Below are positions 7,251 through 56,981 of a stretch of 64,000 nt of DNA, piece by piece. A program made the translations under genes and the position numbers. The notes beneath the pieces are model-generated. The model saw only the letters and a list, made by a program, of their open reading frames with translations. It ran no database searches and was not told the origin of the DNA. The DNA is from Elusimicrobiota bacterium (lineage in GTDB: Bacteria; Elusimicrobiota; Endomicrobiia; Endomicrobiales; Endomicrobiaceae), in assembly GCA_017528425.1 (NCBI GenBank), contig JAFXOV010000003.1:25174-89173 (forward strand), in the 5' to 3' direction. Within the stretch, counting starts at the first letter, position 1. The number at the start of each line of letters is the position of its first letter.

Positions 7251-9893
7251 TTATTTGCTTTCCTGTTTGTTCGCATCTTCTTCAATCTTTTTCAATTCTT
7301 CTTTTAATGCTTTTTCTTTTTCCGCCTGTGCAGCTTTTATTTTTTCCTGCTCGATTTTTGCTTCTGTTTTTGCTTTATCGTTTGCATGCTTTTCCGCTAA
7401 TTTTACTTTTTCTATTTCGGCATTTGCATGAGCTCTTGCTTTATTATTTGCTTCCTTTTCCGCCGCTTTTATTTTTGCTTCTTCGGCTTTAAACTCATTC
7501 GATGCCTTTGCTATTGCTTCTTTTTCTATGGCCTTAATTCTTTCTTCTTCCTTTTGTGATGCCAACTTTCTTTCAGCTTTTATTTTTTCCGTTATTTCTT
7601 TTTCCGCTTCTTTCTTTGCTGCTTCTATTCTTTTTGCTTCTTCTTTTGCCGCTAATTTTTCAGCTGCTTTTTTCTCTGCTTGGAGTTTTTTTGCTGCCGC
7701 CTTTTCTTCGGCTTCAAGTTTCTTTAATTCCTCTTTTGATAAACCTTCTCTTGCTGCCATTTCAGCTTTCAATTTCTCTTCTTCGGCTCTTATCTGTTCC
7801 GCCGTTTTTGCTTGTGAAGCTTCGAACATAGCTGCCTGTTCTTTTTCGGCTTTTATCTGATCTTTCATTTTATTTTCTGCATCTTTAACAGCGTCTTTAA
7901 TTTTCTTTGCATCTTCTTTGGCTGCTTGTTTATCTGCTGCTTTTTTCTCTGCCATAAGTCTTTTTGTCTCTGCTTTTGCTGCATCTTCTTTTTGTTTTTG
8001 TATTGTTTTTAATTTTTCAATCTCTGCATTTGCTTGAGCTTTTGCTTTATCATTTTCTGTTTTTTCTGCTACCTTTATTTTTTCAATCTCGGCTTTTGCT
8101 TGAGCTTTTGCTTTCTCGTTTGCTTGTCTTTCTGCTGTTTTTACTTTTTCTTGAGCAATTTTTGCCTCAGCTTTTGCTTTGTCTTTTGCTTGTTTTTCTA
8201 TAGCCTTTTCTTTTTCTTTTGCAGCTTTTTCGGCAGCTTTAACTTTTTCTTTTTCTTCTTTTGCCTTTGCAGCTTGTTCTGCTTTTATTTTCTTTTCTTG
8301 TTCTTTTAACTCTTTTGCTTTTGCAGCCTGTTCAGCCTTTAGCTTTTCTTTTTCGGTTTTTGCTTTTTCTTTTGCTTCCTTTTCGGCTGCTTTAGCTTTC
8401 TCTTTTGCAGTCTTCGCATCTTCTTTAACAGCCTGTTCAGTACTTGCAGCTTCTTCTTTTATCTCGTTTTCTTTCTCGGCTATCTCGTTTTTGATATTCT
8501 CTTCTTCCGTCTTTACTGCAGTTTCTATTTTTTCTTTTTCCGCACTTACTTGTTCTTTTACATCATTTTCTTTCTTTTCTGCATCTTCTTTTATTGCTTG
8601 CTCATTTTTAACAATTTCATCTTTGGTTTCTTTTATTTCTTCTTTAACATTTGCTTCGGTTGCTTCGGCATTATCTTTTATATCTGCAACTACGACACCC
8701 GAAGATGTTTTTACCTCGGTTGAAACATCCGACTTATCTTTTTTCAATGATTTTATAGGTTCCAAAGATGCATCCATGCCGATTGTTTCACCGAAAGCAT
8801 CACTGTTTAATTCTTTTAATTTCGTTGCAGCCAACTCATGTCCTTGATCTGCTGCCATTTTAAACCATTTTTTTGCTTCATTTAAATCTTGTTTTACACC
8901 CTGACCTTCAGCATACATAAATCCTATCATATATTGTGCATCCGGATCTTTCTTTAATCTGTTATATTCCAGATAATAATCCATAGCTTCTTTATAATCT
9001 TTTTCTACTTCATATCCGTTATAATACATTTCTCCCAACATATAAATGGCATCGTCATTACCGTTAACCATTGCTCTTCTGAAATATTCCAAAGATGCAA
9101 CCAAATCTATTTTTCCGGTTTCACCTTTATAGTAAATAAGTCCTAATGAATATTCGGCGTCGGCATTTCCCTGATTTGCCGCTTCATCATACCATTTTAA
9201 TGCTGCTTTATAATTTTCCCTGTCATAATAATAATTACCTAACTCGTTTTCTGCCTTCGCATATCCTTGGTTAGCTGATTCTTTATAATATTGCAAAGCT
9301 TTTTCTTCATTTTTAGGAGTTCCCTGTCCCTTTCTATACATTTCGGCTAAACAAAACTGAGCTCTTTTATCTCCCTGTTCTGCCGCTTTCAAATACCATT
9401 TATATGCTTTTTCATAATCTTTTTGTACCAATCTTCCGTTATAATACAAATCTCCGAGATAATATTGTGCTTCATAAAATCCGTATGCTGCGGATTCTTC
9501 ATAATATTTCAAAGCTTTTTCGTCGTCTTTGGTTGTAGCTCTTGCATTTTCATACATTTCACCGAGATAAAACTTTGCTTCTCCCACACCTTGCTCCGAT
9601 GCTTTTTGATACCATTTAAAAGCTTCTTTATCACTTTGATGAACATTGCCCGAACCGCTGGCACATAAACCTGCTAATTCATATTGTGCCTGAGCATGTC
9701 CCTGTTGAGCGGCTTTTTTAAACCACTCATATGCTTGAACATAATTTTGTCCTACTCCTTCGCCGTGAAGATATTGCATTCCTATCTCATACTGCGAACT
9801 GGCATTCTTTTCGTTTTCGTTAACAACCGCTGCCATAACATAAGTAACACCGGACAAAAGTGCAACCATAATCAAACTGACCAATTTTTTCAT
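7251..9893 (-). CDS. Secreted Sel1-like-repeat protein fused to a ~475-aa Lys/Glu/Ala-rich coiled-coil tail
   Basis: 880 aa. Signal peptide MKKLVSLIMVALLSGVTYVMA. About 9 Sel1 units carry the signature G.GV.Q[ND]Y..A..W[FY].KAA.QG (aa ~33-360). From aa ~405 to the end the sequence is AEKEAKEKAKxE-type repeats. Confidence 0.85.
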   Translation of the reverse strand: MKKLVSLIMVALLSGVTYVMAAVVNENEKNASSQYEIGMQYLHGEGVGQNYVQAYEWFKKAAQQGHAQAQYELAGLCASGSGNVHQSDKEAFKWYQKASEQGVGEAKFYLGEMYENARATTKDDEKALKYYEESAAYGFYEAQYYLGDLYYNGRLVQKDYEKAYKWYLKAAEQGDKRAQFCLAEMYRKGQGTPKNEEKALQYYKESANQGYAKAENELGNYYYDRENYKAALKWYDEAANQGNADAEYSLGLIYYKGETGKIDLVASLEYFRRAMVNGNDDAIYMLGEMYYNGYEVEKDYKEAMDYYLEYNRLKKDPDAQYMIGFMYAEGQGVKQDLNEAKKWFKMAADQGHELAATKLKELNSDAFGETIGMDASLEPIKSLKKDKSDVSTEVKTSSGVVVADIKDNAEATEANVKEEIKETKDEIVKNEQAIKEDAEKKENDVKEQVSAEKEKIETAVKTEEENIKNEIAEKENEIKEEAASTEQAVKEDAKTAKEKAKAAEKEAKEKAKTEKEKLKAEQAAKAKELKEQEKKIKAEQAAKAKEEKEKVKAAEKAAKEKEKAIEKQAKDKAKAEAKIAQEKVKTAERQANEKAKAQAKAEIEKIKVAEKTENDKAKAQANAEIEKLKTIQKQKEDAAKAETKRLMAEKKAADKQAAKEDAKKIKDAVKDAENKMKDQIKAEKEQAAMFEASQAKTAEQIRAEEEKLKAEMAAREGLSKEELKKLEAEEKAAAKKLQAEKKAAEKLAAKEEAKRIEAAKKEAEKEITEKIKAERKLASQKEEERIKAIEKEAIAKASNEFKAEEAKIKAAEKEANNKARAHANAEIEKVKLAEKHANDKAKTEAKIEQEKIKAAQAEKEKALKEELKKIEEDANKQESK
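7254..8681 (-). repeat. Degenerate in-frame tandem/dispersed coding repeats (~60 nt units) encoding the KEA coiled-coil
   Basis: Near-identical units include ttttcaatctctgcatttgcttgagcttttgctttatc (about 8018-8055), tttttcaatctcggcttttgcttgagcttttgctttctc (about 8080-8118) and a related copy at about 7400-7440. The peptide repeats are A[EK]K.ANDKAKAQA.AEIEK.K. Confidence 0.75.
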
Positions 9894-12208: not shown

Positions 12209-12287
12209 CTAAATTTTCCTTAATATATTTTTTAGACTATCCCATTACTTACTTTGTTACTTTTTTATATTTTATTACAAAACAATT

Positions 12288-14489
12288 TTACACTGTCCAC
12301 GACAAAACATTAAAATTCTTAACCGGTTTAGGTAAAATAACCGAAGATTGGTACGGCCATCTTTCAACTTCCATACTATCCTTATCTACACTAACCGTAA
12401 ATTCCATATTGTTATAATCTTTAGGAAATTCCAAAATTTCCAAAGGAATTTTCAGTTCTATTATCGAATTAAATTTTATATTATCTATCGGCAATTCCTT
12501 CTTTTCTTTTCTGCCTTCATAATAAACATCAAATCCCGTCACATTATGTTCTATATCAAATTTAAAAGAAACTTTAGTTTTTGCAGGTTCTAAAAAGTTA
12601 ATATTGAAACTAAAATTTTCTATTTCTTTAGACTTTTGTTCGATGTTTAGTTCTAATGCCAAATATATATTTCCCAAATCAAAACCGAAATTAAACGATT
12701 TTATCGTACTGGCAACCTGATGCATCGAACCGCCGGTTTGACCTACTATATACAAACCAGCTCTTTTCCATTCGAAGAAATTTGTGATTTCTCCGTCTAT
12801 AACAGGAGTTATCAAAGACGTCGGCATTATAAAATTACCGCTACGACTATTTGACATGTGTTGCTGACCTTTAATAGCTTTATGCAAATAGTCAGGGATT
12901 TTTTCGTTTAATAAAGAATATATTGCCATTAAATGTTTTCTAAACAATAAATCAAACATTCCGTCATTACCGGAAGAATGATCGTCTCCATACCACCAGT
13001 TCCAGTCTGACCCTTCCGCGGCATACAAAATTTTCCATACTTGTTTTTCCAAGTCGCTACCTGCAAACTCAGGATGATTTTTTGTATATTCAACTATAAA
13101 GTCCCTTGTTTGTCCTACATATTGCCAAGAAGTATTATCTTCGTTGTGCCCAATCCATATACCGAAATTTCCGTTTATCCAAGAGCCTGCCATCAAATGT
13201 GTCAGAGTATCTCTGGGCGGAAATCTGTTTAAATAATCAGTTATGGTTACTGTTTCAATTTCATTATCGCTGTTCAATGCGGCGTACAGTTTAGACAAGA
13301 AATCTCTACCGTCGTTTCTATAATATTCCCAACAATTTTCCCCGTCGAGTATTACGGAAACCAACGGATGTTCATATTCCTCCGAAGCATAATTACCTAT
13401 ATTTTTTATTTTAGTCACAAAATCTCTCACGGCATCATCTGGATTCCATTTAGAATAAACAAATCCTATAGAATCAGATAAACCATGATCTCTGAAAATA
13501 ATGTTTGTATGTTTACCGTCAACCGTCACATTGTAAGGTCTGAACAAACTTCTTCTGTTTTCACAAGCTCTTCCGGAACTTCCGCTCAATATTGCTTCAT
13601 CGGTTGCTATCCATCTTATTCCGTTATCGGATACTATTTTTACAACTTCATCACAAACAGATCCTTCGGAAGGCCACATTCCCGTAGGCTTTCTTCCGAA
13701 TAGTTTTTCATAATATTCAATAGCTGATTGAACTTGCCATACGGCATCTTCTCTGTGAGAAAATCTTTTTTTAGGCAAAACAATGTTAGGTGTTGCATCC
13801 AAAGCATTGTTTGTATCGCATAACAAAGGAAGTATAGGATGATAAAAAGGTGTTACGGAAACTTCTATTTGTCCCTTATCCTGTAATTCTTTATGTTTAG
13901 AAACTATTTTTCCGCAAATCTCAAGTTGTTTTTCTATCAATTTATGTTTTTCATCTTCGGTAAAATCTCTTCCTTTCACATACAAATAGTTAATATATTC
14001 GTCTTGTTGCCTCCAATAAGGATCAAACCAAGATAAATTAAACCACACTTGCAAATCTCTTATATCTTCATTTTTAAAGTAATTCAATATTCTTCTAACG
14101 TCAGCTTCACTGGTTTGTTTTCCTCTTTTTTCCAATAACTGATAATATCTGTTATACGGAAAAACCATAGTTTCCCAGTTTGCCATGAAAAAATTCATAA
14201 GAATAAAAACTTTTTCATCGTCGGACAATTCCAAAACCGGCTTCAATGTTAAATCTAAAAATTTATCTTTAGCTATACCTTTGGAATATTCGTCAAGTTG
14301 AACCAACAAAGACGGAACCAAATTAATATTTGCTTTTACTCTCGGATAATCTTCTAAAATCGCAACCATATCGTAATAATCTTTGGTTGCGTGAAGTCTT
14401 ACCCACGGTAATTCGTAAGTATTATTTAACGGATTCTTATATATCGGCTGATGTTGATGCCATAAAAAAGCTAAATATACTTTCTTCAT
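12288..14489 (-). CDS. Glycoside hydrolase family 57 protein (alpha-amylase / 4-alpha-glucanotransferase-like, long form)
   Basis: 733 aa. The N-terminus LAFLWHQHQPIYKN...WVRLHATKDYYDM is typical of GH57. Further motifs are SVTPFYHPILPLL and GMWPSEGSV. Confidence 0.85.
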   Translation of the reverse strand: MKKVYLAFLWHQHQPIYKNPLNNTYELPWVRLHATKDYYDMVAILEDYPRVKANINLVPSLLVQLDEYSKGIAKDKFLDLTLKPVLELSDDEKVFILMNFFMANWETMVFPYNRYYQLLEKRGKQTSEADVRRILNYFKNEDIRDLQVWFNLSWFDPYWRQQDEYINYLYVKGRDFTEDEKHKLIEKQLEICGKIVSKHKELQDKGQIEVSVTPFYHPILPLLCDTNNALDATPNIVLPKKRFSHREDAVWQVQSAIEYYEKLFGRKPTGMWPSEGSVCDEVVKIVSDNGIRWIATDEAILSGSSGRACENRRSLFRPYNVTVDGKHTNIIFRDHGLSDSIGFVYSKWNPDDAVRDFVTKIKNIGNYASEEYEHPLVSVILDGENCWEYYRNDGRDFLSKLYAALNSDNEIETVTITDYLNRFPPRDTLTHLMAGSWINGNFGIWIGHNEDNTSWQYVGQTRDFIVEYTKNHPEFAGSDLEKQVWKILYAAEGSDWNWWYGDDHSSGNDGMFDLLFRKHLMAIYSLLNEKIPDYLHKAIKGQQHMSNSRSGNFIMPTSLITPVIDGEITNFFEWKRAGLYIVGQTGGSMHQVASTIKSFNFGFDLGNIYLALELNIEQKSKEIENFSFNINFLEPAKTKVSFKFDIEHNVTGFDVYYEGRKEKKELPIDNIKFNSIIELKIPLEILEFPKDYNNMEFTVSVDKDSMEVERWPYQSSVILPKPVKNFNVLSWTV

Positions 14490-24462: not shown

Positions 24463-25257
24463 TTAAGCCTTTTTTATTTGTGATGCTTTGAAAGTCTTTA
24501 TATTGTTCTCCGAAAGTTCAACATTAAAAGTTTCTTTTATACAATCAACAGAAACGATTTTCCCCTTTCCGTTGGGAGTGATTACCGTTTCCCCGACTTT
24601 CGGATGTTTGTTTTTAAAACAAACATAATTATCGTATTCGTAAGCCAAACAACACATCAATCTCCCGCAAAGTCCGGAAAGTTTTGAAGTGTTTAAAGAT
24701 AAATCCTGATCTTTTGCCATATCTATCGTTACCGACGAAAAATCTTTTAAAAATATTTGGCAACACAACTGTTTACCGCAAACTCCCACTCCGCCTACAA
24801 TTTTAGACTCGTCTCTAACACCGATTTGAACCATCTGTATTCTTGTTTTTAATACATGAGCCAAATCTTTTATAAGTTCTCTGAAATCAACTCTGGTTTC
24901 AGATGTGTAATAAATAAAAAGTTTTGTTCTGTCGAAAGTATATTGAACACATGTCAATTTCATATCGAGTTTATGTTCCTGGACTTTTTTTGAAACAGTT
25001 ATTCTTGCCTGTGCATTTTTGTTTTCATTGTTAACAAGTCTTTTCAAATCATTTTCGGTTGCTATTCTTAAAATTTTACCGATATACATATCCTTTGCAG
25101 GTTGTATATTTTTTTCTTTTTCGCAAACTACACCGAATTCTGTTCCGTGCTCTGTTTCAAGTATAACTTTATCGTTTAAATTTACAGTATATTTACCCGT
25201 TTGAGCATAAACTTTATCTTTAATTCTTCTGACTATTACTCCCACTACCATTGGCAT
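24463..25257 (-). CDS. ricT: PSP1-domain protein (YaaT/RicT-like)
   Basis: 264 aa with the Cys-rich PSP1 C-terminal signature LSGLCGRLMCCLAYE. The tmk-holB-yaaT gene order is conserved. Confidence 0.8.
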   Translation of the reverse strand: MPMVVGVIVRRIKDKVYAQTGKYTVNLNDKVILETEHGTEFGVVCEKEKNIQPAKDMYIGKILRIATENDLKRLVNNENKNAQARITVSKKVQEHKLDMKLTCVQYTFDRTKLFIYYTSETRVDFRELIKDLAHVLKTRIQMVQIGVRDESKIVGGVGVCGKQLCCQIFLKDFSSVTIDMAKDQDLSLNTSKLSGLCGRLMCCLAYEYDNYVCFKNKHPKVGETVITPNGKGKIVSVDCIKETFNVELSENNIKTFKASQIKKA

Positions 25258-40186: not shown

Positions 40187-43100
40187 TTAGAATTGTATCG
40201 TCAACTTACTTGAAAGTTCTATATTTGTATAATTTTGTTCGGGAACATAAGTGTATAAATATCTTGAAAAACTCGTTCCTAACGCAAATCTGAAGTTCTT
40301 GGATATTTCGTAATCTCCCGCCAATTTAAACCCGAAATTTTGATAGTTTGCAGCTTCTACATCTACCGCAGAACTTTGAGTATTGTAAAACACATTGGAT
40401 TCAAACAATAATCTGTTTTTCAACGGTATATTTCCTATCAAAGGAAGTTTTATGCCAGTCGGGAACAACAAATCCGAAGTTGCTTGACCGTTAACTGCGT
40501 TAGAGAAAACTTGTGATGCAAGATTACCTTCAGAATTTTTGGACCAATTTTGAGAATTGTCGTATCTCAAACTGAATCTCCACTGCTTAACATTTGTAGC
40601 AATCTGAACAGCCCAATTGGTTATCTGACCTTCCTGTTTTAAAACATTTTCTTCCTTATCGTATTCCTGATTTTTTGTAACATCCGCGGATAAAAACAAA
40701 TCATACTTTTTGATAACTTTTAACTTATAATCTCCGCCGAACATAATGCTGTCACCGTACGAAACACCTGCAACCGTAGTAGTTTTCTTATTGTATTTTA
40801 AATTAAGTTGTGTATCGCTCATCCAACTTTGTCCGAACAATTTTTCAAATCTGCTCATACCGATAAGGATATCCGGCCAAGTTTTTGTATAAGAATCCTT
40901 TGTGGTTCCGGTATTATACGATTCTTCTTCTCCGTCGGTAAATGTAAAGCTCATGGTCATTGTTTTTATCGGCATAAGTTTACCTTTAAAATCGAACGCT
41001 TCAAACGGATTATATCTTCCTATAATTCTTCTATCGTCTCTTTTTAATACCGTTTTAACAGTATAAGATGACGTTGAATATACCGGCTGTATTTCTTTTA
41101 AAAGGTTATCTCTTATCCATAATTTATTGGTGGCAATACCTACGGAAGAAAAGCCTTTTTCCACATTGGTATAAGAATCGGAATCCTGCATTCTGTAAGA
41201 CGTAGTGAAGGTTAAACTTCTTAAATATTTGCTGTTAAAGATATCTCTTGCCTGAAGATTCCATGTAAATTCCGTTGTCCCGACTCTGTCTATTGCCTTT
41301 TTTTCTCCAGGATAAACTTTATTTACAGATGCACTGCTATAAGTTAAATCATAAGTTTCCACGGTATTCAAACTGTAAATAATATTCGGTTGAAACCATT
41401 TTGCGACTTTAAAATTCAAACTTGCACCGATATCCTGATTTAAAGATTTATCATAAAAAATTTCTTCGTTTTCAAAATATTCTTTATTTTTTTCATTAAC
41501 TCTTGTAATAACGTAAGCAGGAGAAAATATAACTTTATCATAGAAAGAGAACGGTGCTTTAAGGCCCCAAGTTTCGGTTTTTTCCAACGTTAAGAAATCT
41601 TCCACTTCCATATATTTTCTCATTGTATCCAAATCTAAGAAAGCATTAGTATCTTCTATTTTTTCCGTCGGATAAATTTTGTATGCGGAATTACTTATTC
41701 TGTAATCTCCCACAAGACTTGTAGGTAAGAAATCAAAATCTATCGGATTTAAATAAACCATGTTAGCGGAAATAGTTTCTTTATCTTCAAGTCGTTCTAT
41801 ATTTTCCGTGTCTTTAATGAACCTGTTATATTCCAATGTGAATTTAGGTAAATCCGTTCCCGCGGATAAAACGGTATTAACATTTCCGCTATACGAAATA
41901 ACTTTACCTTCATCCAAAACAGAAACTTGGTCGGATGTATTTTGTAATGCAAGAGGTGTAACGGTTTTTGTTTTTGTTAACGATGCATTAATCGGTAAAA
42001 CTTGTGTTCCTGCTATTTCGATACCTTTAAATTCAAGGTCTGCATAATCTTCCAATAATTCTCTGTCGTAAGTTCCAGGTGCGAAAGTTTCAAAATCTTT
42101 ATCTATTCCCTTCCTATGCAAATTAACATTTAAAGCACCAATTGCTCCCCTGCCTGCCCAGTTTATACTAAAATCTGTTTTCCAGGCATTACCGTCTTTA
42201 CTTTTTGCATCTGTAACATGAATTTCGTTCACCCAAATTTCACCTGTGTCTGCTCCGTTTGTTTTTACACCGGTTTCAATGAACGCAACTTTTTGCAGAC
42301 TCGGTTCACCTTTCGGTATGATTGTAGCTCTCGGATCAACAGCAACCCATTCCGTTGTTGCTCCATACCCTTTCTGTTTAATTTCCAAGACGTTCCATTT
42401 TCCTTTCATATCATCAGTTATCGGAATAGAATATTCGAAATAATTGTTTTCGTCTCCACCGACTCTCATTATGAAATTACTTTCTTCCGGACTTACCGCG
42501 GTAGTACTTGCAATATACAAGAAGAATTTAAACTTTTCATAATTTGATAAATCAAATCCGGAACTATAAGTTGTTCTCGCAAAAAATTCGTCGCCGCCTG
42601 TACTCGAATCGTAACTTATGGCTAATGCTTGTTCATCTCTTTTAGAGTCACTGTCTATATCGTACAAATCTCTATAATATGAGTTCGTTAAAAGGGAAAC
42701 ATATTGCGGGTTATCTCTTCCTATAGAAAATATTTCACTGGTGCTAAAAGAATCACTTTGTTCTTTAGTCCACTTATTTCCGACAACGGCAATTTTACCT
42801 ATCGTCATTTTACCTTTATCATAAAAACCAGATACTCTGTTAACAGTTAATCTTGTAACTCTTATGTTTTTCCACTTTTCTTTGTCGGCATCGGATGTAA
42901 TATCCAACGGAATTTGTATTCTTTGCCAACCGGTTTTTGTAATATCGGCATACTCTTCCAAATTAAAGTTTGTAAGATTTACATCAGCCAAATCCAAACG
43001 ATTGTTACCGTTTAAATCTTCAGTATCGAGTCTGCCGTTATTTGCACCGATTTTAGATATTCCGTAAGCGGCAGTTTTGTTTGTAAAATCTCTACCTATA

Positions 43101-45736
43101 TCTTCCCAGGGACTTATTATTCCGTCTCCGTTTTTATCTTCTGTATCCAAAACATAGTTCTGATCGGAATCTTCATTCATTGCAGAAGCTAAATCAAGAC
43201 GAACATTTACCTGTGCAAAGTTTGCTTTTATCCAAATTTCCAAATACAACTTTTTTGAAAAATCGTAACCTGCCACAGATACGACTTGACCTATAGAGGC
43301 ATAATCACAAACAGACATATCATAATTTATATCCATAACCTGCTGTTTTTCGCCCGATATAATTTCCAAATTTTTGTCTATATCTTTTTTTTCTATATCG
43401 TAGTTTCTCCAAGTTATTGCATTCGTATCATATTCTGCATATATACCGTTAGGTGTTGATGCATAAAACCAATTATCGTCTATCAAAGAAAAACTGTCAT
43501 CCTGTTTTGCACTTTCCATAGATTCTATTATTGCTTTACCTGTAGTGTTTTGAATATATTTACTCATAGCATATTCCGCATTTGCGGATATGCTTAAGCT
43601 ATCCGTTATTTTTACATTTTTTACTTTTGCATCAACTTCACCTACAAGCGTACTTGACGGAGCGGAATATATATCCGGAAGTTTTGTATCTTCTGCGGCA
43701 AACTCATAAATAAAACTTCCTCCCAAAGAAATATTATCCGTAAAATCATATTGAGATCTCACTCCTACAAGAGTCGAGCCTGACGATGCTCCTCCCAACG
43801 GAGAATAATCGTAAGAAACATCTATAACGGTATCGTTGTTAATATATTCATCTTTTAAAATCGTCAATATACCGACATCGTAATCCAGCATATAGTCTTC
43901 ATTTATCTTCAAAGTTTTACCGTTTGCAACAACTTTTTCCGACATAGGAACAATACCTGTTCTTAAATTAAAAATTTTAATTTTATACTCGTATTGAACA
44001 ACAAAGTTGTATTTATGTGTATTTGATGTATATAAATCATCGTGTAACGGTTTACCTGTTATAGGTTGCAAATTGAATACACCGTTATCAAAATCTACGA
44101 TAATATTTGAATCATATCCGTCTATATTCGGAAATTTCGGAACATGTTTTCCTCCTTCTATGGAAGAAGGAATCGTATCATTTAAATCTCTGACTTCCAA
44201 TATAAAATTATCTCTGCCGTTATATTTTGTAATTTGATAGTTGCCTATGCTGTAAAAAGTATGCACTTCCGTAGATAGAGCATCGGTATTATCCGTATCC
44301 TTAATTACTTGAGGATTTCCCCCTGTTGAATCCGACAACCAAGTGCCATCCGTATATTGGTAATCGATAGCAACAACATACTGATTAGATAAAGTATTTT
44401 TAAATGTAATTATACCGGTAGTATAATCTATGGTATAGTCCGTTCCTGCCGTAAGTTTAATAAAATTACCTTTATATACTTTGGACAAATCTTTCATATA
44501 ATGCAATTCCGTATCGTCTCTTATTACGACATAATCACTGATGGTAGTTTTTATTTTATCCAAATACACTTTTGCGGAATCATTTTTTATTTTTTTAGAA
44601 GGATCACTGATAATGGAATAATATTTATATTTTATATACGAAGTATCGGATATAATTTTTTTCTCCATTTTACTGCTTCCTTTAAACTGTTTGCTTTCGG
44701 AATAACCCTTTGTTTTAGAGAAAAAGAATTTCGTTTTTAATCCCTTATATTGAGTATCAACTTTAGCACCGAACAATTCTTTTGAATATCCCGAAAATTC
44801 GGTACTCGGCAAATCAACATTAATATCACCGAAAGCGGCTTCTCTTACAAATTCGTTTCCTTTTCCCTTATAAAGAATATAAATATCTTTTTTATCTTCT
44901 TGTGTATCATCGAAATCAACATTTAATTCAAGCCTGTCTCCGACAGTACCTTTTATTTTCATTTGCAATTCTTGTTCCATGGAAAAGTCCGAAGAATTTG
45001 ATCTTTTACCGGACTCTTCATTATCATAAATCGTTCCGGAATAATTTACGCCTATCATTTTTCTTCCGGATAACAACAACTTAGAATCAAAAGGTAATTT
45101 ATCCATCATTTTTTTTGCAAAAGATTTTGCCTTATCGTCTTCTTTTTGTTTTTCTTCCGTTTCTTGTTTTCCTTTATTCTCTTCTTTTTTTGAAACAGGC
45201 TCAACAGTTGCCGTTGTTGTTGATTGATTAACATCGGCTGCCGTATCGGTAGATTTATTAAGATTTAATTTGTCTAAAACTTTTTCTCCTGCAATACCCA
45301 TTGCTGTTGTTGTAGGCAAATTCAAATCATAATTTGCTGTATTTTGCGGCTTTTCAACAATTGCACCCGAAGAATAATATGTCCCCAAATCGTTTTCATC
45401 CGGAATAACGGTCATCGAAGAAACAACAATATCTTTATTTTCTTTTACTTCCTTGTATTTTAAAGGTTTGGTAATATCAATAGCTTGTGTATTACTTGAA
45501 ACATTTACTGTATCCGTAGATATGTTTACTTGTGCCGTATCCGTAGAAACACTTATTGTGTCTGTAGATATATTTACTTGTGATGTATTTGTGGAAATAT
45601 TTACCGTGTCGGTAGAAGTTACAATTTGAGAATTTGTATTATCCGTTGCGGTTTCACTGCTTACGGAAACAACATCTTCCGCAAACATGTATACCGAACA
45701 AAACAGAAAAATAATTATCAAAAATATTTTTTTCAT
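40187..45736 (-). CDS. Giant (1849 aa) predicted outer-membrane beta-barrel protein, tentatively SprA/Sov-like
   Basis: Signal peptide MKKIFLIIIFLFCSVYMFA. S/T-rich 8-aa repeats and a K/E linker. Alternating beta-strand patterns run throughout, with an OMP-type C-terminus ..IELSSKLTIQF. The block aa 255-375 (EQELQMKIKGTVGDRLELNVDFDD...ILYKG...FGDINVDLP...ELFGAKVDTQYKGL...FFFSKTKG) parallels the SprA N-terminal pattern as I remember it. Confidence 0.85.
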   Translation of the reverse strand: MKKIFLIIIFLFCSVYMFAEDVVSVSSETATDNTNSQIVTSTDTVNISTNTSQVNISTDTISVSTDTAQVNISTDTVNVSSNTQAIDITKPLKYKEVKENKDIVVSSMTVIPDENDLGTYYSSGAIVEKPQNTANYDLNLPTTTAMGIAGEKVLDKLNLNKSTDTAADVNQSTTTATVEPVSKKEENKGKQETEEKQKEDDKAKSFAKKMMDKLPFDSKLLLSGRKMIGVNYSGTIYDNEESGKRSNSSDFSMEQELQMKIKGTVGDRLELNVDFDDTQEDKKDIYILYKGKGNEFVREAAFGDINVDLPSTEFSGYSKELFGAKVDTQYKGLKTKFFFSKTKGYSESKQFKGSSKMEKKIISDTSYIKYKYYSIISDPSKKIKNDSAKVYLDKIKTTISDYVVIRDDTELHYMKDLSKVYKGNFIKLTAGTDYTIDYTTGIITFKNTLSNQYVVAIDYQYTDGTWLSDSTGGNPQVIKDTDNTDALSTEVHTFYSIGNYQITKYNGRDNFILEVRDLNDTIPSSIEGGKHVPKFPNIDGYDSNIIVDFDNGVFNLQPITGKPLHDDLYTSNTHKYNFVVQYEYKIKIFNLRTGIVPMSEKVVANGKTLKINEDYMLDYDVGILTILKDEYINNDTVIDVSYDYSPLGGASSGSTLVGVRSQYDFTDNISLGGSFIYEFAAEDTKLPDIYSAPSSTLVGEVDAKVKNVKITDSLSISANAEYAMSKYIQNTTGKAIIESMESAKQDDSFSLIDDNWFYASTPNGIYAEYDTNAITWRNYDIEKKDIDKNLEIISGEKQQVMDINYDMSVCDYASIGQVVSVAGYDFSKKLYLEIWIKANFAQVNVRLDLASAMNEDSDQNYVLDTEDKNGDGIISPWEDIGRDFTNKTAAYGISKIGANNGRLDTEDLNGNNRLDLADVNLTNFNLEEYADITKTGWQRIQIPLDITSDADKEKWKNIRVTRLTVNRVSGFYDKGKMTIGKIAVVGNKWTKEQSDSFSTSEIFSIGRDNPQYVSLLTNSYYRDLYDIDSDSKRDEQALAISYDSSTGGDEFFARTTYSSGFDLSNYEKFKFFLYIASTTAVSPEESNFIMRVGGDENNYFEYSIPITDDMKGKWNVLEIKQKGYGATTEWVAVDPRATIIPKGEPSLQKVAFIETGVKTNGADTGEIWVNEIHVTDAKSKDGNAWKTDFSINWAGRGAIGALNVNLHRKGIDKDFETFAPGTYDRELLEDYADLEFKGIEIAGTQVLPINASLTKTKTVTPLALQNTSDQVSVLDEGKVISYSGNVNTVLSAGTDLPKFTLEYNRFIKDTENIERLEDKETISANMVYLNPIDFDFLPTSLVGDYRISNSAYKIYPTEKIEDTNAFLDLDTMRKYMEVEDFLTLEKTETWGLKAPFSFYDKVIFSPAYVITRVNEKNKEYFENEEIFYDKSLNQDIGASLNFKVAKWFQPNIIYSLNTVETYDLTYSSASVNKVYPGEKKAIDRVGTTEFTWNLQARDIFNSKYLRSLTFTTSYRMQDSDSYTNVEKGFSSVGIATNKLWIRDNLLKEIQPVYSTSSYTVKTVLKRDDRRIIGRYNPFEAFDFKGKLMPIKTMTMSFTFTDGEEESYNTGTTKDSYTKTWPDILIGMSRFEKLFGQSWMSDTQLNLKYNKKTTTVAGVSYGDSIMFGGDYKLKVIKKYDLFLSADVTKNQEYDKEENVLKQEGQITNWAVQIATNVKQWRFSLRYDNSQNWSKNSEGNLASQVFSNAVNGQATSDLLFPTGIKLPLIGNIPLKNRLLFESNVFYNTQSSAVDVEAANYQNFGFKLAGDYEISKNFRFALGTSFSRYLYTYVPEQNYTNIELSSKLTIQF
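45482..45631 (-). repeat. Tandem ~21-27 nt coding repeats (STDTxxVNI units) at the N-terminus of the giant OMP
   Basis: The peptide reads TSTDTVNISTNTSQVNISTDTISVSTDTAQVNISTDTVNVSSNTQ. The DNA shows repeated gtagatat(a/g)tttac / ccgtagaaac units. Confidence 0.8.
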
Positions 45737-51496: not shown

Positions 51497-52846
51497 TTAT
51501 TTCTCCCTATCTACTATAATAAACATAAATTCTGCTTCTGCTACAAGTTTACCTTCAACAAAAGCTTCTCCTCTTACTTTACCTTTTCTTCCGCTGTCTC
51601 TTATAACCTCAACCTTTAATTCCAACATATCGCCGGGAATAACGGTTTTTCTGAATTTAACTTTATCTATTCCCATAAAATATGCTAAACAATTTCTTAG
51701 TGTCGGTCTTGATAAAAACATAACACAAGATGTTTGTGCCATAGCTTCAACAATTAAAACTCCCGGCATAATAGGTTGTCCCGGAAAATGACCTTGAAAG
51801 AAAGGTTCATTACCGCTTACACATTTATAACCTGTTGCCTTTTTATCTCCCGCACCGAACAATTTAACTCTATCTATCATTAAAATCGGAAATCTGTGAG
51901 GGATAATTTGTTGAATTTCAGCACAATTATAAACTTTTACTTCTTCCTCGGAAACATTCGTCTCTTTTTTCTCTTCTGCAACTTTCACTTTTGTTTCTCC
52001 TTTATCTATAACAGCTTTAGAAACAAACTCTTTTACAAAGCTGACATTACTTTTGTGTCCCGGCTTTTCCGCAACAAGTCTTGCTCTTATCGGTTTACCT
52101 GCCAAAGAAATATCACCGATTAAATCCAATATTTTATGCCTTACAAATTCATTATCAAATCTTAACGGTTCTTTATTGTATATTCCGTTAGGACCTATAA
52201 CTATTGCATTATCCAAGCTTCCGCCTTTTGCAAGGCCGTTCGACTGCAAAGCTTCAATCTCAAAATCGAAACAAAATGTTCTTGCAGGTGCAATATCGTT
52301 AAGATAAGATTCTTTCGTTATTTCAAATGTTGCTTGTTGATTTGATAAGAAAGGATGATCGTAACCTATTGTACAATCTATTTCCAATTTGTCACTGGGA
52401 TATGCAACAATTTTTGTGTTACCCGATATAAATGTAACAGGTTCTTTTATTGTATAAAATTCTTTTTCTGCATCCAGTTCTTTTATACCCGACTCCAATA
52501 TTTTCTGTGCAATAACTTTTGCACTTCCGTCCATGATGGGAGGTTCGTTATTATCTATTTCTATTATTAAATTATCTACTCCCAAAGCAAAACATGCAGA
52601 CAAAATATGTTCTATGGTATGAATTTGAACATCTCCGGACTGAATGGTTGTTCCTCTTATAGCAACACCGCTGGACAAGCTGTTCCAATCTGCTTTTATG
52701 TCGGGTTTGTTCGGTAAATCTACTCTAACAAAATGTATGCCCGTATTTTTTTCTGCAGGTTTAAATACCATTTTACTTTTGTTTCCGGTATGTAAACCTA
52801 CTCCCTCGATAGTGAATTCTTTTTCAATAGTAGTTTGTTTTATCAT
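51497..52846 (-). CDS. lpxC/fabZ: Bifunctional UDP-3-O-acyl-GlcNAc deacetylase / 3-hydroxyacyl-ACP dehydratase (LpxC-FabZ fusion)
   Basis: 449 aa. The LpxC N-terminal part has QTTI..EF...GVGLHTG and HKILDLIGD. The FabZ C-terminal part has LPHRFPILMIDRV and GHFPGQPIMPGVLIVEAMAQ. Confidence 0.92.
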   Translation of the reverse strand: MIKQTTIEKEFTIEGVGLHTGNKSKMVFKPAEKNTGIHFVRVDLPNKPDIKADWNSLSSGVAIRGTTIQSGDVQIHTIEHILSACFALGVDNLIIEIDNNEPPIMDGSAKVIAQKILESGIKELDAEKEFYTIKEPVTFISGNTKIVAYPSDKLEIDCTIGYDHPFLSNQQATFEITKESYLNDIAPARTFCFDFEIEALQSNGLAKGGSLDNAIVIGPNGIYNKEPLRFDNEFVRHKILDLIGDISLAGKPIRARLVAEKPGHKSNVSFVKEFVSKAVIDKGETKVKVAEEKKETNVSEEEVKVYNCAEIQQIIPHRFPILMIDRVKLFGAGDKKATGYKCVSGNEPFFQGHFPGQPIMPGVLIVEAMAQTSCVMFLSRPTLRNCLAYFMGIDKVKFRKTVIPGDMLELKVEVIRDSGRKGKVRGEAFVEGKLVAEAEFMFIIVDREK

Positions 52847-52848
52847 GA

Positions 52849-53871
52849 CTATTCCTCTATATTTAACTTTTTTGATATTTTTCTGATTTTTGAAAACAAT
52901 TCCGGTAACTTCTTTATCAAAGCTAAAGATTCCAAATGTTTTCTGAGCGGTTGTATAGGATAACCGGAAACTATTTGATTATTTTCCAAATTTCCGCTTA
53001 TACCGCTTTTTGCACCGACCATTACATTATCTCCGACGGTTATATGTCCTACAATGCCAACCTGACCGCCGAGAGTAACTCTGTTACCTATTTTCGTAGA
53101 ACCTGCAATACCTACCTGAGATACTATTATGGTATTTTCTCCGACTTGAACATTATGTGCAATCATTACCAAATTATCTATTTTCGTATTATTTCCTATG
53201 GAAGTTTTTCCTATTGCAGCTCTGTCGATTGTGGTATTGGATCCTATTTCGACATTGTTTCCTAATTCAACATGACCTATTTGCGGAATTTTTTCTCCGG
53301 TAGCGGCAAAACCAAAACCGTCTCCGCCGAGAACGACTCCCGGATGAATTATACAATTGTCACCTATTATTGTTTTTTCTCTTATAGTAACATTAGGATA
53401 GATTAAACAATTTTTACCGATAACAACATCACTTCCTACGAAAGTGTTAGCCAATATTTTTGTATTGTCACCAATCTTTGTATTTTCTTCAACAACTACA
53501 TTATGTCCGATAGTAATATCTTTACCCAAAACAACATTTGGTTCTATTGTTGCTTTTGGACTTATTCCCGGTTTTATTTTATCTAATCTTTGTTTATCTA
53601 TTATCACCAACATCTTTGAAAAAGCAAGTTGCGGATCTTTTACAACTATAAGATTTTTATCTTTATACTCTTCAACATTTATATCTTCACCGACGAATAT
53701 TGCACTTGCCTTAGTGTCTTTCAAAAAATGTGTATATTTTTTATTACCTAAAAAAGAAATTTGTCCGCTTACGGCATCCTGAATTGCGCCGACACCGACA
53801 ACTACAAAATCTTCCTGCCCTATAAGTTTTCCGTTAACAATACCAGCAATTTCTTTTAAAGTTAAATTCAT
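52849..53871 (-). CDS. lpxD: UDP-3-O-acylglucosamine N-acyltransferase
   Basis: 340 aa. N-terminal LKEIA..V.G.L.G, then extended hexapeptide repeats. Confidence 0.92.
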
Positions 53872-53885
53872 TTTGTCCTCTTATA

Positions 53886-56800
53886 TTAAAAAACATTTCC
53901 TATAGTAAAATAGAATTGTTGTAAATCTTCGCCTCTTTTATGATTCAAACCGTATCCCCAATCAAGTCTCAACGGGAATACCGGCGTTGCAAATCTTATA
54001 CCGAAACCGAAACCGGATTTTAAATAATATGAGTTTGTATCGTCATTATCCGTTCCAAAAGAGAAATTAACATGATTTATATCTTTCCAAGTTCCTCCGA
54101 TATCGTAGAAGAACGCACCTTGCAATATTGTTCTCTTGTTTTCTTGAACGATAGGGAACTTATATTCAACATTTGCTACAGCCATTACTTTACCGCCGTT
54201 ATAAGGACCTACTTCCGTTCTGTATTTATAACCTCTTATTGTGTCTGCTCCGCCGACATAATATTTTTCATACAAAGGAACATCCGAAGAGTCTCCGTAA
54301 CTTTCTATCCAACCCGTATTAATATTTATCGACAAAACAAATTTCCAGAATGTAGGGAAGAACCATGTTCCCCTGACTGAATTTCTTACATAATTAACAT
54401 TACCGCCTAACGGTCCGCCGGCAACACTTATTCCGTAAGAATATCTGACTCCCTTTGATGCATCATAAATATAATCCCTTGTATCATAAACTATTTGAGC
54501 TCTGACACTTGATGTTCTGTCTTTTGCCAAATCGGGATCGTTCATAATGTCTTCTTTAAGTTCGTCATCGTCTATATCAAAAATTCTGACATGTTCGTAA
54601 GTATAACCGAACAACAACGCTATTTTATCTGCCACTCTCGGACTTATTGATACCGAGCCTCCGAGTCTTCCTTCCCTGTAAGCATCACTTGTATTATGAT
54701 AATCTCTTAATCTTTCTATGTTATATACCGACAATCCTAAACTCATGGCTTTTCCCAAGAACCAAGGTTCAGTCCAATCCAATTCATAATTTTGTCTTCT
54801 TGCACCGAACTCCCACAACAAATTCAATTTCTGTGCTCTTCCGAACAAATTCATATGTTGTAACTGAATTGAACCTACAAACTTATCTACGGAAGAATAA
54901 CCCGCACCGGCAGTTATCATACCGGGCTTACCTTCAGTTATGGAAAAAGCCAAATTCATAATATCAGGTTGCCCCGTAGGGGAAATATTCGGTTCTGCCC
55001 CGTCAATAAAGCCTAAATTATAAATTTTTTCCATACTCCTTCTTACTTTACCGGAAGAGAAAACATCGCCCGGTCTAAGTAAGATTTCCCTTCTTATGGT
55101 ATTATCTTTCGTGTGTGTTAAACCATCTATGTAAAGATCACCGACATAAACAATATTGTTTTCCTGAATGTTAAAATCAACATTAACAACATTATCTATT
55201 ATCTTTTTCGTTTGAAGTTTGGCCATTTTGTTTTCTAATTTGGTCTTTTTCTTTTCAAGCTTTTTAATTTCTTCATATTTAAGACCTTGTTCTTCACTTT
55301 CGTTACCGTCTATTTCTATTTGCATTTCAGACATATCACCGGCACCAAGATCTGTTAATTGTTGTTTAACTTCATCCAATTTTGTCTGTAATTTTTCTTC
55401 TTTCTTGTTCTGTTTTTCTAATTTCTTTTCCTGTTTTTTTACTTTCTTTTCCTCTTTGGCAACAAGTTTTTCTTTGTTTTTTTCTTCTTTTGCCAACTTC
55501 TTTTCTAGCTTAACTTTTTTCTTTTCGAGCTTTTTTGCCTGTTTTTCGGTAAGAACAAAAATTTCGCCATCTTCTATTTTCTGATTAACTTCATCTATAT
55601 CATTTTGTACAATTTGCTCTTTGCTTTTTTGTTCCGTAACTTTTCTTTCTCTCTTTTCCAATTCTTTATGTGCTTTTGCCAATTTCTTTTCTAATTTAGC
55701 TCTTTTCTTTTCAAGTTTTGCAACATATTTTTCTTCTTTATATTCTCTATATTCCAAATTCTGGTCTACAACAGCTATTTTATCTTTTATACTTTGCTCT
55801 TTAGCATTTTGGTTTAAAACTTCGTTTTCTCTGTTTCTTGTTTTATATTTTGTTCTTTCAAGTTTTCTGTTTAATTTTTTAATTTTTTTATTAGCGGCAG
55901 TTCTGTTTACTTTTGTTTCTATTTGCTCGTCAATAGTATCAATATCATCTTGTATTACAATTTCTTTTTCCGTTTTTTTGGAGCCGAGTTCTTCCTGCAT
56001 TAAGTTATCGGTACTTTTTGAAAAATCCGGTTCGATATAAGAATGTAAATAACCTCTGTTTGAATAATCATCATAAACTTTATTTAAAAGTTCAAGTATC
56101 TTTTCTTGATTGAATATTTCATTTCTTTTTATTGTGGAATGTTTTGATAATTCCTTGGATGATATTACCGAATTACCTTCAAAGCCTATATCTCCCATTT
56201 TATATCTCACACCCTCATTTACTCTTAAAGTAATAAACATCTTGGTTCTTGCTTCATTGTATGTTATTTCGGGTTCATCAACCGAAAAGTCCATAAAACC
56301 GCGATTAACATAAAATCTCTTTATTGAAGCCATATCGCTTTTCAAAGTTTCTTCTTTGAAAACTTTTTTCTTTTTTGTTTTAGCTAACTTTTTAATTTTT
56401 TTGTTTTTAAAACTTCTTACACCTTCAACAAACAAATCTCCCACCAAAACTTTATTGTTTTCGGTAATAAGGAAAGTTATCGTCATTGTATTGGTATCTT
56501 CATCGGTGGTAGGATACACTTCCATTTGGCAATCGGCATATCCTTTGTCTTTATATAAAGTAATAATTTTTCTTTTTGATTCTTCAAGGTCAATAAAATT
56601 ATAGAAATCTTTTTCTTTTAAGGTAAGTTCCCCTTTCAACTTGTTTTCGGAAAATTGTTTATTGCCTTTAAAAACTATTCTCTTAATATATGGTTTTTCC
56701 ACTACAGTAAACTTAACTATTTTATTTTCTTTATCTACGGAAATTTCAGCATTATCAAAATATCCCAGTCCTAAAACAGTTCTTAAATCTTCTCTCGCTA

Positions 56801-56981
56801 TGGATGTAGCATACACCTTACCCTTTTTCAATTGAATTTCGGAACGGACTGTTTTCGGTTTTACATTTTGCAATCCATCGAAAACAACATCTTTTATTCT
56901 AAAAATAGTATCATCATCCGCAAAAACAAAAGGTGCACAAAAAATTACAGCCAATATAGACATTAAAACTTTTTTAATCAT
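53886..56981 (-). CDS. bamA: Outer-membrane protein assembly factor BamA with a ~275-aa coiled-coil insertion in POTRA4
   Basis: 1031 aa. Signal peptide, then five POTRA-like units and a C-terminal Omp85 barrel (..YVGGADTIRGY.., terminal FYFTIGNVF). aa 321-595 are K/E-rich and interrupt the fourth POTRA between YLHSYIEPDF and VNVDFNIQENN. Confidence 0.88.
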   Translation of the reverse strand: MIKKVLMSILAVIFCAPFVFADDDTIFRIKDVVFDGLQNVKPKTVRSEIQLKKGKVYATSIAREDLRTVLGLGYFDNAEISVDKENKIVKFTVVEKPYIKRIVFKGNKQFSENKLKGELTLKEKDFYNFIDLEESKRKIITLYKDKGYADCQMEVYPTTDEDTNTMTITFLITENNKVLVGDLFVEGVRSFKNKKIKKLAKTKKKKVFKEETLKSDMASIKRFYVNRGFMDFSVDEPEITYNEARTKMFITLRVNEGVRYKMGDIGFEGNSVISSKELSKHSTIKRNEIFNQEKILELLNKVYDDYSNRGYLHSYIEPDFSKSTDNLMQEELGSKKTEKEIVIQDDIDTIDEQIETKVNRTAANKKIKKLNRKLERTKYKTRNRENEVLNQNAKEQSIKDKIAVVDQNLEYREYKEEKYVAKLEKKRAKLEKKLAKAHKELEKRERKVTEQKSKEQIVQNDIDEVNQKIEDGEIFVLTEKQAKKLEKKKVKLEKKLAKEEKNKEKLVAKEEKKVKKQEKKLEKQNKKEEKLQTKLDEVKQQLTDLGAGDMSEMQIEIDGNESEEQGLKYEEIKKLEKKKTKLENKMAKLQTKKIIDNVVNVDFNIQENNIVYVGDLYIDGLTHTKDNTIRREILLRPGDVFSSGKVRRSMEKIYNLGFIDGAEPNISPTGQPDIMNLAFSITEGKPGMITAGAGYSSVDKFVGSIQLQHMNLFGRAQKLNLLWEFGARRQNYELDWTEPWFLGKAMSLGLSVYNIERLRDYHNTSDAYREGRLGGSVSISPRVADKIALLFGYTYEHVRIFDIDDDELKEDIMNDPDLAKDRTSSVRAQIVYDTRDYIYDASKGVRYSYGISVAGGPLGGNVNYVRNSVRGTWFFPTFWKFVLSININTGWIESYGDSSDVPLYEKYYVGGADTIRGYKYRTEVGPYNGGKVMAVANVEYKFPIVQENKRTILQGAFFYDIGGTWKDINHVNFSFGTDNDDTNSYYLKSGFGFGIRFATPVFPLRLDWGYGLNHKRGEDLQQFYFTIGNVF
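55197..56021 (-). repeat. Lys/Glu-rich coiled-coil insertion with three copies of an (A/I)KKLEKKK(V/T)KLE(K/N)K(L/M)AK unit
   Basis: Peptide copies are AKLEKKRAKLEKKLAKAHKELEK (aa ~421-443), AKKLEKKKVKLEKKLAKEEK (aa ~482-501) and IKKLEKKKTKLENKMAKL (aa ~572-589). DDIDTIDEQIE and NDIDEVNQKIE are also paired. Confidence 0.8.

Follow-up and report, generated by a model that had tools for sequence, protein, structure and literature searches.

A long helical insertion in POTRA4 of BamA from rumen Endomicrobiaceae and its possible role as a periplasmic arm

We describe a bamA gene whose product carries a large insertion, predicted to be a coiled coil, in its fourth POTRA domain (POTRA4). The gene lies in a 64,000-nucleotide stretch of DNA (hereafter the window; positions 25,174 to 89,173 of contig JAFXOV010000003.1, GenBank assembly GCA_017528425.1) from an Elusimicrobiota bacterium of the family Endomicrobiaceae. 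In this 1031-residue protein, strands β2 and β3 of POTRA4 are separated by ~272–283 extra residues, which fill exactly the space between the two. As the best explanation, which we put forward tentatively, we propose that they form a repeat-grown coiled-coil module that gives a minimal β-barrel assembly machine (BAM) an accessory arm in the periplasm.

The encoded protein is a genuine, orthologous, single-locus BamA of rumen Endomicrobiaceae (Ruminimicrobiellum-like). In the 1031-aa open reading frame (ORF), Pfam recognizes the Omp85 family (PF01103, aa 711–1031, E = 5.6e-63) together with five POTRA stretches, and the BamA equivalog model TIGR03303 scores 481.2 bits (cutoff 297.15), while the protein falls far under the cutoff of the TamA models. 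An AlphaFold2 model of the whole protein, built on 106 homologues, had a mean predicted local distance difference test (pLDDT) score of 84.2, with the barrel near 90, and matched BamA structures in Foldseek with E-values down to 1e-49 and TM-scores (target length) of 0.67–0.74. By DSSP, the model contains five β-α-α-β-β POTRA units, the fourth broken by the insert. The loop-6 IRGY motif is found at aa 914–917, with R916 and G917 invariant in the 106 sequences. The protein resembles canonical BamA (Escherichia coli 5D0O, Neisseria gonorrhoeae 4K3B) in its five POTRAs, 16-strand barrel, loop-6 (I/V)RGY motif, fold and bamA–lpxD neighbourhood. An earlier note, made from the letters of the window alone, had already read the ORF as a 1031-aa BamA, which Pfam, TIGR03303 and Foldseek bear out. 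Since the gene order bamA-lpxD-lpxC/fabZ-lpxA-lpxI is kept in every Endomicrobiia locus whose downstream region was examined, these bamA genes are orthologues and not TamA-like paralogues. By its family membership, the protein is expected to act as a catalyst for inserting outer-membrane proteins. A search of 5.8 billion protein clusters placed the gene in the Endomicrobiia (phylum Elusimicrobiota), with Candidatus Ruminimicrobiellum ovillum as the closest named relative (85% identity); MBR3653892.1 (NCBI nr), which belongs to the query's own cluster, is annotated plainly as BamA.

The position of the extra residues was obtained from a phmmer alignment to N. gonorrhoeae BamA (4k3b), in which query residues 4–317 correspond to chain residues 4–323 and query residues 601–1031 to chain residues 337–792. 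About 283 query residues thus stand where 4k3b has a POTRA4 β2–β3 turn of ~13. DSSP places POTRA4 β2 and β3 on either side of the block, which rules out an inter-domain linker (Table 1). The earlier note had proposed a single contiguous block (aa 321–595, 55197–56021) within POTRA4, between β2 and β3, where a short turn is normal. The phmmer alignment, the multiple alignment and DSSP agree with this, the structural limits being a few residues off, and the short turn is confirmed by the 76 of 106 aligned BamAs that have 11–17 residues in the stretch bounded by query residues 317 and 601, which we use throughout as the site length.

The insert was modelled in two AlphaFold runs, one of the whole protein and a second of aa 312–608 with 22 insert-bearing homologues. 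Helices were assigned by DSSP at aa 325–334, 338–356, 360–410, 417–470, 479–544, 547–550 and 563–592, with no strands before β3 (597–606), and the five main helices measure 19, 51, 54, 66 and 30 residues. The pLDDT was 80–96 over most of the insert in both runs; the second reproduced the helices, with values of 89–96 across aa 342–501. A β-bridge between aa 358 and 476 is present in both models, so the junction between helices 338–356 and 360–410 adjoins that between helices 417–470 and 479–544. The insert is rich in lysine (23.7%) and glutamate (16.3%), contains one proline, and has a net charge of +14 and a calculated pI of 9.3.

Hydrophobic residues follow a heptad pattern, occupying 0.6–0.8 of the a/d positions in four of the five main helices and 0.47 in helix 479–544, compared with 0.13–0.17 at the other positions, while opposite-charge i/i+4 pairs are scarce (0.00–0.14). 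This pattern marks the insert as a coiled coil and not as a charged single helix, with aa 493–513 a possible exception. ER/K single α-helix domains and the K/E low-complexity insertions of AT-rich genomes share with the insert its Lys/Glu content, growth by repeats and fast evolution, but differ from it in the clear a/d seam of most of its helices, its few opposite-charge i/i+4 pairs and the purifying selection on it. A single α-helix (ER/K) domain is ruled out for most of the module, only aa 493–513 being single-helix-like. The charges are complementary: the acidic helix 338–356 (net –7) lies opposite the basic start of helix 479–544, and acidic residues 458–470 lie opposite basic residues 360–387, a pattern that fits antiparallel helix pairing.

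From the helix lengths, the predicted β-bridge and the charge complementarity, the insert appears to consist of a stalk and two arms that meet at a junction of four helices. In this model, a short stalk would be formed by the acidic helix 338–356 packed on the start of the basic helix 479–544, a hairpin arm of ~75 Å by helices 360–410 and 417–470, and a second arm by the end of helix 479–544 with helix 563–592. Together, we infer, they would make a rod of roughly 10–17 nm, anchored part-way along its length. By POTRA topology β3 heads toward the next POTRA, which should place the β2–β3 turn at the membrane-distal end of POTRA4, and the rod would point from this side into the periplasm. Of the long antiparallel helical hairpin that the earlier note had suggested, the helical nature and heptad seam stand, whereas the single hairpin does not: there are 6–7 helices, with the β-bridge seen in both AlphaFold runs.

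Table 1. Features of the bamA locus in the window (positions within the 64,000-nucleotide stretch; strand as given)
Feature	Position	Strand	Evidence
bamA CDS (1031 aa + stop)	53886..56981	-	ORF list, Pfam, TIGR03303, Foldseek
POTRA4, N-terminal part (aa 258–324)	56010..56210	-	DSSP β1 260–268, α1 275–279, α2 292–308, β2 315–324; 4k3b alignment to residue 323
Inserted helical module (aa 325–596)	55194..56009	-	all-helical in two AlphaFold runs
Predicted acidic stalk helix (aa 338–356, net –7), holds DDIDTIDEQIE; conserved in 150-aa and long forms	55914..55970	-	DSSP, charge
Predicted arm A, hairpin of helices 360–410 and 417–470; missing from the 150-aa forms (gap in P0025, P0027, P0028)	55572..55904	-	DSSP, β-bridge, complementary charge
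Repeat unit copy 1 (aa 420–436, VAKLEKKRAKLEKKLAK)	55674..55724	-	self-comparison, DNA repeat family D1
66-residue helix 479–544 (net +11), weak heptad seam at aa 493–513	55350..55547	-	DSSP, heptad analysis
Repeat unit copy 2 (aa 482–498, AKKLEKKKVKLEKKLAK)	55488..55538	-	self-comparison, DNA repeats
Variable tip loop (aa 545–562), low-confidence, indel-rich	55296..55349	-	pLDDT <50, conservation 0.39, lineage-dependent length
Return helix 563–592, back to POTRA4 β3	55206..55295	-	DSSP, both models
Repeat unit copy 3 (aa 572–588, IKKLEKKKTKLENKMAK)	55218..55268	-	self-comparison, DNA repeats
POTRA4 strand β3 (aa 597–606, VVNVDFNIQE)	55164..55193	-	DSSP E597–606; 4k3b alignment from residue 337
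POTRA5 (aa 609–684)	54930..55157	-	DSSP E612–619, H626–630, H643–654, E659–668, E674–683
Omp85 β-barrel (aa 687–1031), with loop-6 IRGY	53889..54923	-	PF01103, invariant R916/G917
bamA–lpxD spacer, 14 nt; site of skp/ompH in other Elusimicrobiota	53872..53885	.	
lpxD, directly downstream of bamA	52849..53871	-	ORF, tblastn synteny across loci

The insert evolves faster than the rest of BamA yet is clearly constrained, being kept in frame under purifying selection. Ratios of nonsynonymous to synonymous substitution (dN/dS) were calculated by the Nei–Gojobori method between the window and five representative long-form genomes (one per GTDB species), the main ranges excluding saturated comparisons with the most distant genome (L006). 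They were 0.07–0.20 for the insert, 0.04–0.11 for POTRA1–4 and 0.005–0.045 for POTRA5 plus the barrel; for the most distant genome, with its saturated dS, the respective values were 0.30–0.38, 0.06–0.17 and 0.05–0.06. The least saturated pair (L004–L007, dS ~0.83 in all three regions) gave 0.066 for the insert, 0.039 for POTRA1–4 and 0.005 for the C-terminal part. Conservation is even along the insert helices (0.65–0.80) and lowest in the tip loop at aa 545–562 (0.39). The length of the insert stays at 263–290 residues over lineages with saturated synonymous sites, and the crown lineages P0001–P0019 conserve non-repetitive motifs, for example KKLNRKLERTKYKTRNRENEVLNQN.

Among the BamAs examined, the long insert occurs only in rumen Endomicrobiaceae (Ruminimicrobiellum-like), where 22 long-form clusters (90% identity clusters) have 263–290 residues at the site. 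Intermediate lengths are seen in P0025, P0027 and P0028 (150–151 residues), and five further rumen-clade clusters (P0023, P0024, P0026, P0029 and P0033) have 30–58 residues. Candidatus Proruminimicrobium quisquiliarum, from an anaerobic digester, has 13, and the 76 BamAs with 11–17 residues include that of Endomicrobium proavitum (E. proavitum) and the 820–900-aa BamAs of other phyla. Single site lengths among the relatives include 13, 30, 32, 42, 58, 150 and 263–290 residues. The long insert is in frame in all 22 clusters, drawn from NCBI, ENA, Logan and JGI assemblies with contigs of up to 1.11 Mb, and long and intermediate forms recur at identical lengths across assemblies (contigs up to 1.06–1.11 Mb), which rules out an assembly artefact. 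The survey of related genomes that the earlier note had called for finds the insert in many independent assemblies and finds it uncommon among BamAs at large.

The POTRA4 β2–β3 turn is an indel hotspot. P0049 and P0050 (45 residues, in another Endomicrobium clade) and P0033 (42 residues) represent other Endomicrobiia lineages with independent insertions of different composition at this very turn. The POTRA domains of cyanobacterial Omp85 and of Toc75 also tolerate clade-specific loop extensions, but these take the form of short loops or of a Pro-rich stretch at the N-terminus and are not known to include a coiled coil of ~270 residues in POTRA4.

Repeats within the insert point to the way in which it was built. 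A 17-residue unit occurs in three copies, with 11–13 of the 17 residues identical between pairs and 63–74% identity of the underlying DNA across 80 nt. The motif DDIDTIDEQIE (aa 345–355) has a diverged second copy, NDIDEVNQKIE (aa 460–470), the DNA repeat behind the two being 74% identical, and Tandem Repeats Finder detects a heptad-phased repeat with a period of 21 nt (3.1 copies, 55392–55457). The three-copy unit and the duplicated DDID motif of the earlier note are both present, with the qualification that copy 1 fits the proposed pattern less exactly and that the second DDID copy is diverged. The 150-aa forms and the long forms have in common an N-terminal motif (SEKEILLEEDI..E.Q) and a C-terminal motif (KKEIKKL..K.KLEKKL), the former lacking aa 358–415 and aa 439–478. 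Because the 150-aa forms share the end motifs and are without arm A, the long form must have come from a shorter helical insert to which a hairpin of duplicated units was added. Sequence comparison thus shows that the module grew stepwise in the rumen clade by duplication of heptad-phased units.

The history of this module does not look simple. When the columns outside the insert were analysed by neighbour joining with bootstrapping, the short forms P0023, P0024 and P0026 clustered with the long forms, leaving the 150-aa forms outside (100%), and a grouping of long and 150-aa forms that leaves out P0023, P0024 and P0026 received 0% support. A simple single-gain history is not supported by this grouping. 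The β3 motif VDxxY of P0023, P0024 and P0026 recurs in P0029 and P0030, which are basal short forms, and a loop remnant, GI(K/E)VELPKDDG, is common to P0023 and P0029; given these shared features, loss, recombination and convergence remain as alternatives. The short-form BamAs of L008 and L009 are 90–91% identical to the query in their C-terminal part, while the LpxD proteins beside them share 82% and 64% identity with that of the window, a contrast that suggests mosaicism or recombination at the bamA–lpxD locus among rumen lineages.

For the function of the module we propose the following. The rod would serve as an accessory periplasmic arm in a family without BamB, BamC and BamD and in a clade without skp beside bamA. 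Such an arm would extend the reach of BamA and present a long, positively charged amphipathic surface, which might capture unfolded outer-membrane proteins or pass them on, or serve a partner protein as a docking surface. Basic BamA activity does not depend on the insert, as close relatives function with 13–58 residues at the site. Mies et al. 2024 (PMC11257099) report that BamBCD, LptD and FadL are missing throughout the Endomicrobiaceae, that the genomes of Ruminimicrobiellum are reduced, and that these bacteria may be associated with rumen ciliates. BamB, BamD and BamE of E. coli do not use POTRA4 as their main site of docking (PMC13067283), which fits a site that is free for an appendage.

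The gene for Skp/OmpH (PF03938), which normally lies directly after bamA, is missing there in the rumen clade. In E. proavitum an ompH/skp gene separates bamA from lpxD, as it does in 12 more loci of Elusimicrobiota, Omnitrophota and KSB1 (L001 at 8249–8842; L015, L016–L019, L021–L023, L025 and L027–L029). In every rumen-clade locus, including those of the 13-aa, 30–58-aa and 150-aa forms and the window, bamA abuts lpxD at a distance of 12–64 nt. No OmpH was found within ±10 kb of the rumen-clade bamA loci or in the 64-kb window, including with a hidden Markov model (HMM) of Endomicrobiia OmpH. A search for a relocated skp with an OmpH profile, which used an insensitive word pre-filter, returned 28 proteins, none of them on the bamA contigs of 1.11, 1.06 and 0.75 Mb.

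Loss of skp from this position is also seen elsewhere. Among metagenome-assembled genomes of termite-gut Endomicrobium, L026 (9208–9381) keeps a 31-codon remnant of the OmpH C-terminus, and L024 (12232–12420) has a gap of 188 nt and no OmpH; in both, skp has decayed. In outgroup Elusimicrobiota, OmpH/Skp itself can be long (257–301 aa, compared with ~197 aa; L019 at 12251–13156, L021 at 12237–13010, L023 at 12449–13222), the extra length being a mid-protein low-complexity insertion that is S/T/P/Q-rich in L019 and L023 and acidic in L021.

Several observations weigh against an accessory arm. Short-loop relatives (P0030, P0029, P0023, P0024 and P0026, with 13–58-aa loops) are likewise without an adjacent skp, so the syntenic loss of skp predates the insert and is independent of it; strict compensation for Skp by the insert is not supported by this comparison. 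The earlier note had suggested that the block might substitute for missing Skp or Bam lipoproteins, which would be no more than a candidate role. The placement of P0023, P0024 and P0026 among the long forms implies secondary loss or recombination, and secondary loss would make the insert dispensable. The dN of the insert is 2–3 times that of POTRA1–4 and 7–10 times that of the C-terminal part. The arrangement of the insert in space is derived from helix lengths, the β-bridge and charge rather than from coordinates or a predicted-error map. Foldseek with the insert-only model gave no match at E ≤ 0.001, returning generic long helical proteins only. Finally, hydrophobic residues make up 18–23% of the four long helices, which we judge low for the client-binding surface of a holdase and presumably lower than in the arms of Skp.

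The main alternative to an accessory arm, which we think on balance unlikely but take seriously, is a tolerated low-complexity expansion without specific function. Replication slippage and unequal recombination of AT-rich Lys/Glu codon repeats in a small, drift-prone genome, itself rich in AT, would have swollen a permissive loop on the surface into the block, and selection would merely keep it helical, soluble and harmless. The composition of the window (~32% GC, with lysine at 10.7% of the residues of its proteins) is favourable to such a process, as are the heptad-phased 21-nt tandem repeat and the diverged 80-nt repeats inside the insert. Other window proteins also carry long K/E-rich tracts; an 880-aa ORF (7251–9893, reverse strand) has N-terminal Sel1/TPR-like repeats (sub-threshold NCBIfam matches) followed by ~500 residues of K/E/A-rich low complexity. 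The wide spread of lengths at the site in close relatives, the independent 45-aa insert in another clade and the apparent secondary loss in P0023, P0024 and P0026 agree with it too, and the insert is the fastest-evolving part of BamA and has no homologue or fold relative by phmmer or Foldseek. Against mere tolerance, however, the dN/dS of the insert is far under the neutral value and near that of POTRA1–4, non-repetitive motifs are conserved across P0001–P0019, and length holds steady across saturated synonymous divergence. A regular heptad seam with complementary charges and a confident helical model, rather than disorder, also speak against it. Furthermore, lpxD, lpxC/fabZ, lpxA and lpxI are as long as in insert-free relatives, so the expansion is specific to BamA.

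A stronger version of the accessory arm, which we consider doubtful, is a one-polypeptide BAM in rumen Endomicrobiaceae. Here the rod would be both a chaperone in cis and a tether extending far into the periplasm, taking over the capture and delivery of substrates that are normally the roles of Skp/SurA and of the Bam lipoproteins, with a de novo origin from repeats within one genus-level radiation. Skp/OmpH resembles the predicted rod in its long α-helical arms, which are basic, amphipathic and periplasmic. It differs in being a trimeric "jellyfish" cavity with a β-barrel body, whereas the insert would form intramolecular arms on POTRA4 with no β body, and the two share no sequence similarity.

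OmpM/SlpA and Lpp are outer-membrane proteins with a long periplasmic coiled coil, a possible spacer. By analogy with Lpp or OmpM-type stalks, the insert could be a spacer or tether, a basic rod reaching peptidoglycan or the inner membrane and fixing the depth of BAM or coupling it to Sec or TamB-like machinery. This reading, which we hold to be improbable, would suit a rod of the inferred 10–17 nm at the membrane-distal end of POTRA4, a net charge of +14 that could favour anionic peptidoglycan or phospholipid, and the reduced envelope-biogenesis toolkit of the lineage (PMC11257099). Yet the known stalks are parallel homotrimers capped by a peptidoglycan-binding SLH domain or by a covalent link, while the insert is an antiparallel, single-chain loop, both ends of which return to POTRA4, and no SLH, OmpA-like or LysM domain, membrane anchor or lipobox was found in it, nor any significant Pfam family. 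Pfam likewise finds no peptidoglycan-binding module in the protein as a whole. Its tips are moreover its least conserved parts, and insert-free relatives share the habitat.

That the insert is an artefact or misreading (assembly error, inter-domain linker, fused Skp/OmpH gene or opposite-strand gene) is hardly credible: the region is repetitive and contains two forward-strand ORFs (55219–55584, 121 aa; 55621–56040, 139 aa), but these are Phe/Ser/Leu-rich mirrors of Lys/Glu codons, the insert is in frame in many independent assemblies and flanked by POTRA4 β2 and β3, and an origin by Skp/OmpH fusion is ruled out by the lack of any OmpH match in Pfam (E ≤ 10), in BLASTP against the E. proavitum OmpH (E = 2.7) and with the clade-specific OmpH HMM.

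Searches with the insert itself returned almost nothing. Pfam gave no significant family, only sub-threshold coiled-coil noise, and phmmer against 1.84 billion representative proteins gave one match, a fragment of BamA itself. This sole match (P0121) is a 221-aa predicted protein that starts inside a long-form insert and ends in unrelated hydrophobic sequence, and its contig is probably chimeric or truncated. No comparable POTRA insertion was found in the literature searched, which included a survey of Omp85 diversity (PMC4104836) and a 2026 review of BAM (PMC13067283), in line with the earlier note, which knew of no described BamA of this kind. Proteins with the insert are already public under the label of ordinary BamA; the insertion itself is new to the literature searched.

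Two other ORFs of the window are of interest for the envelope. Downstream of bamA, a 449-aa protein (51497–52846, reverse strand) is a fused LpxC-FabZ with a K/E-rich linker between its domains; the fusion (PF03331 + PF07977) is also present in E. proavitum, in the Proruminimicrobium-like locus L002 and on the contig L031 of a 150-aa form. An ORF of 1849 aa (40187–45736, reverse strand) has no Pfam match and scores 131 bits, under the cutoff of 200, with TIGR04189 (SprA/Sov of the type IX secretion system translocon). Judged by this sub-threshold similarity, it may be a giant β-barrel and a demanding BAM substrate.

BamA, an essential protein conserved across many bacteria, is a drug target, and its POTRA domains are usually seen as compact scaffolds of fixed size. 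The relatives with 13, 30–58, ~150 and ~280 residues at a single POTRA4 loop form a natural series, which bears on the limits of periplasmic remodelling of BAM, on how accessory functions may be built into BamA and on the birth of folded coiled coils from repeats. Should the insert prove to be tolerated ballast, the POTRA4 β2–β3 turn would still be a permissive place in BamA at which tags or probes could be engineered.

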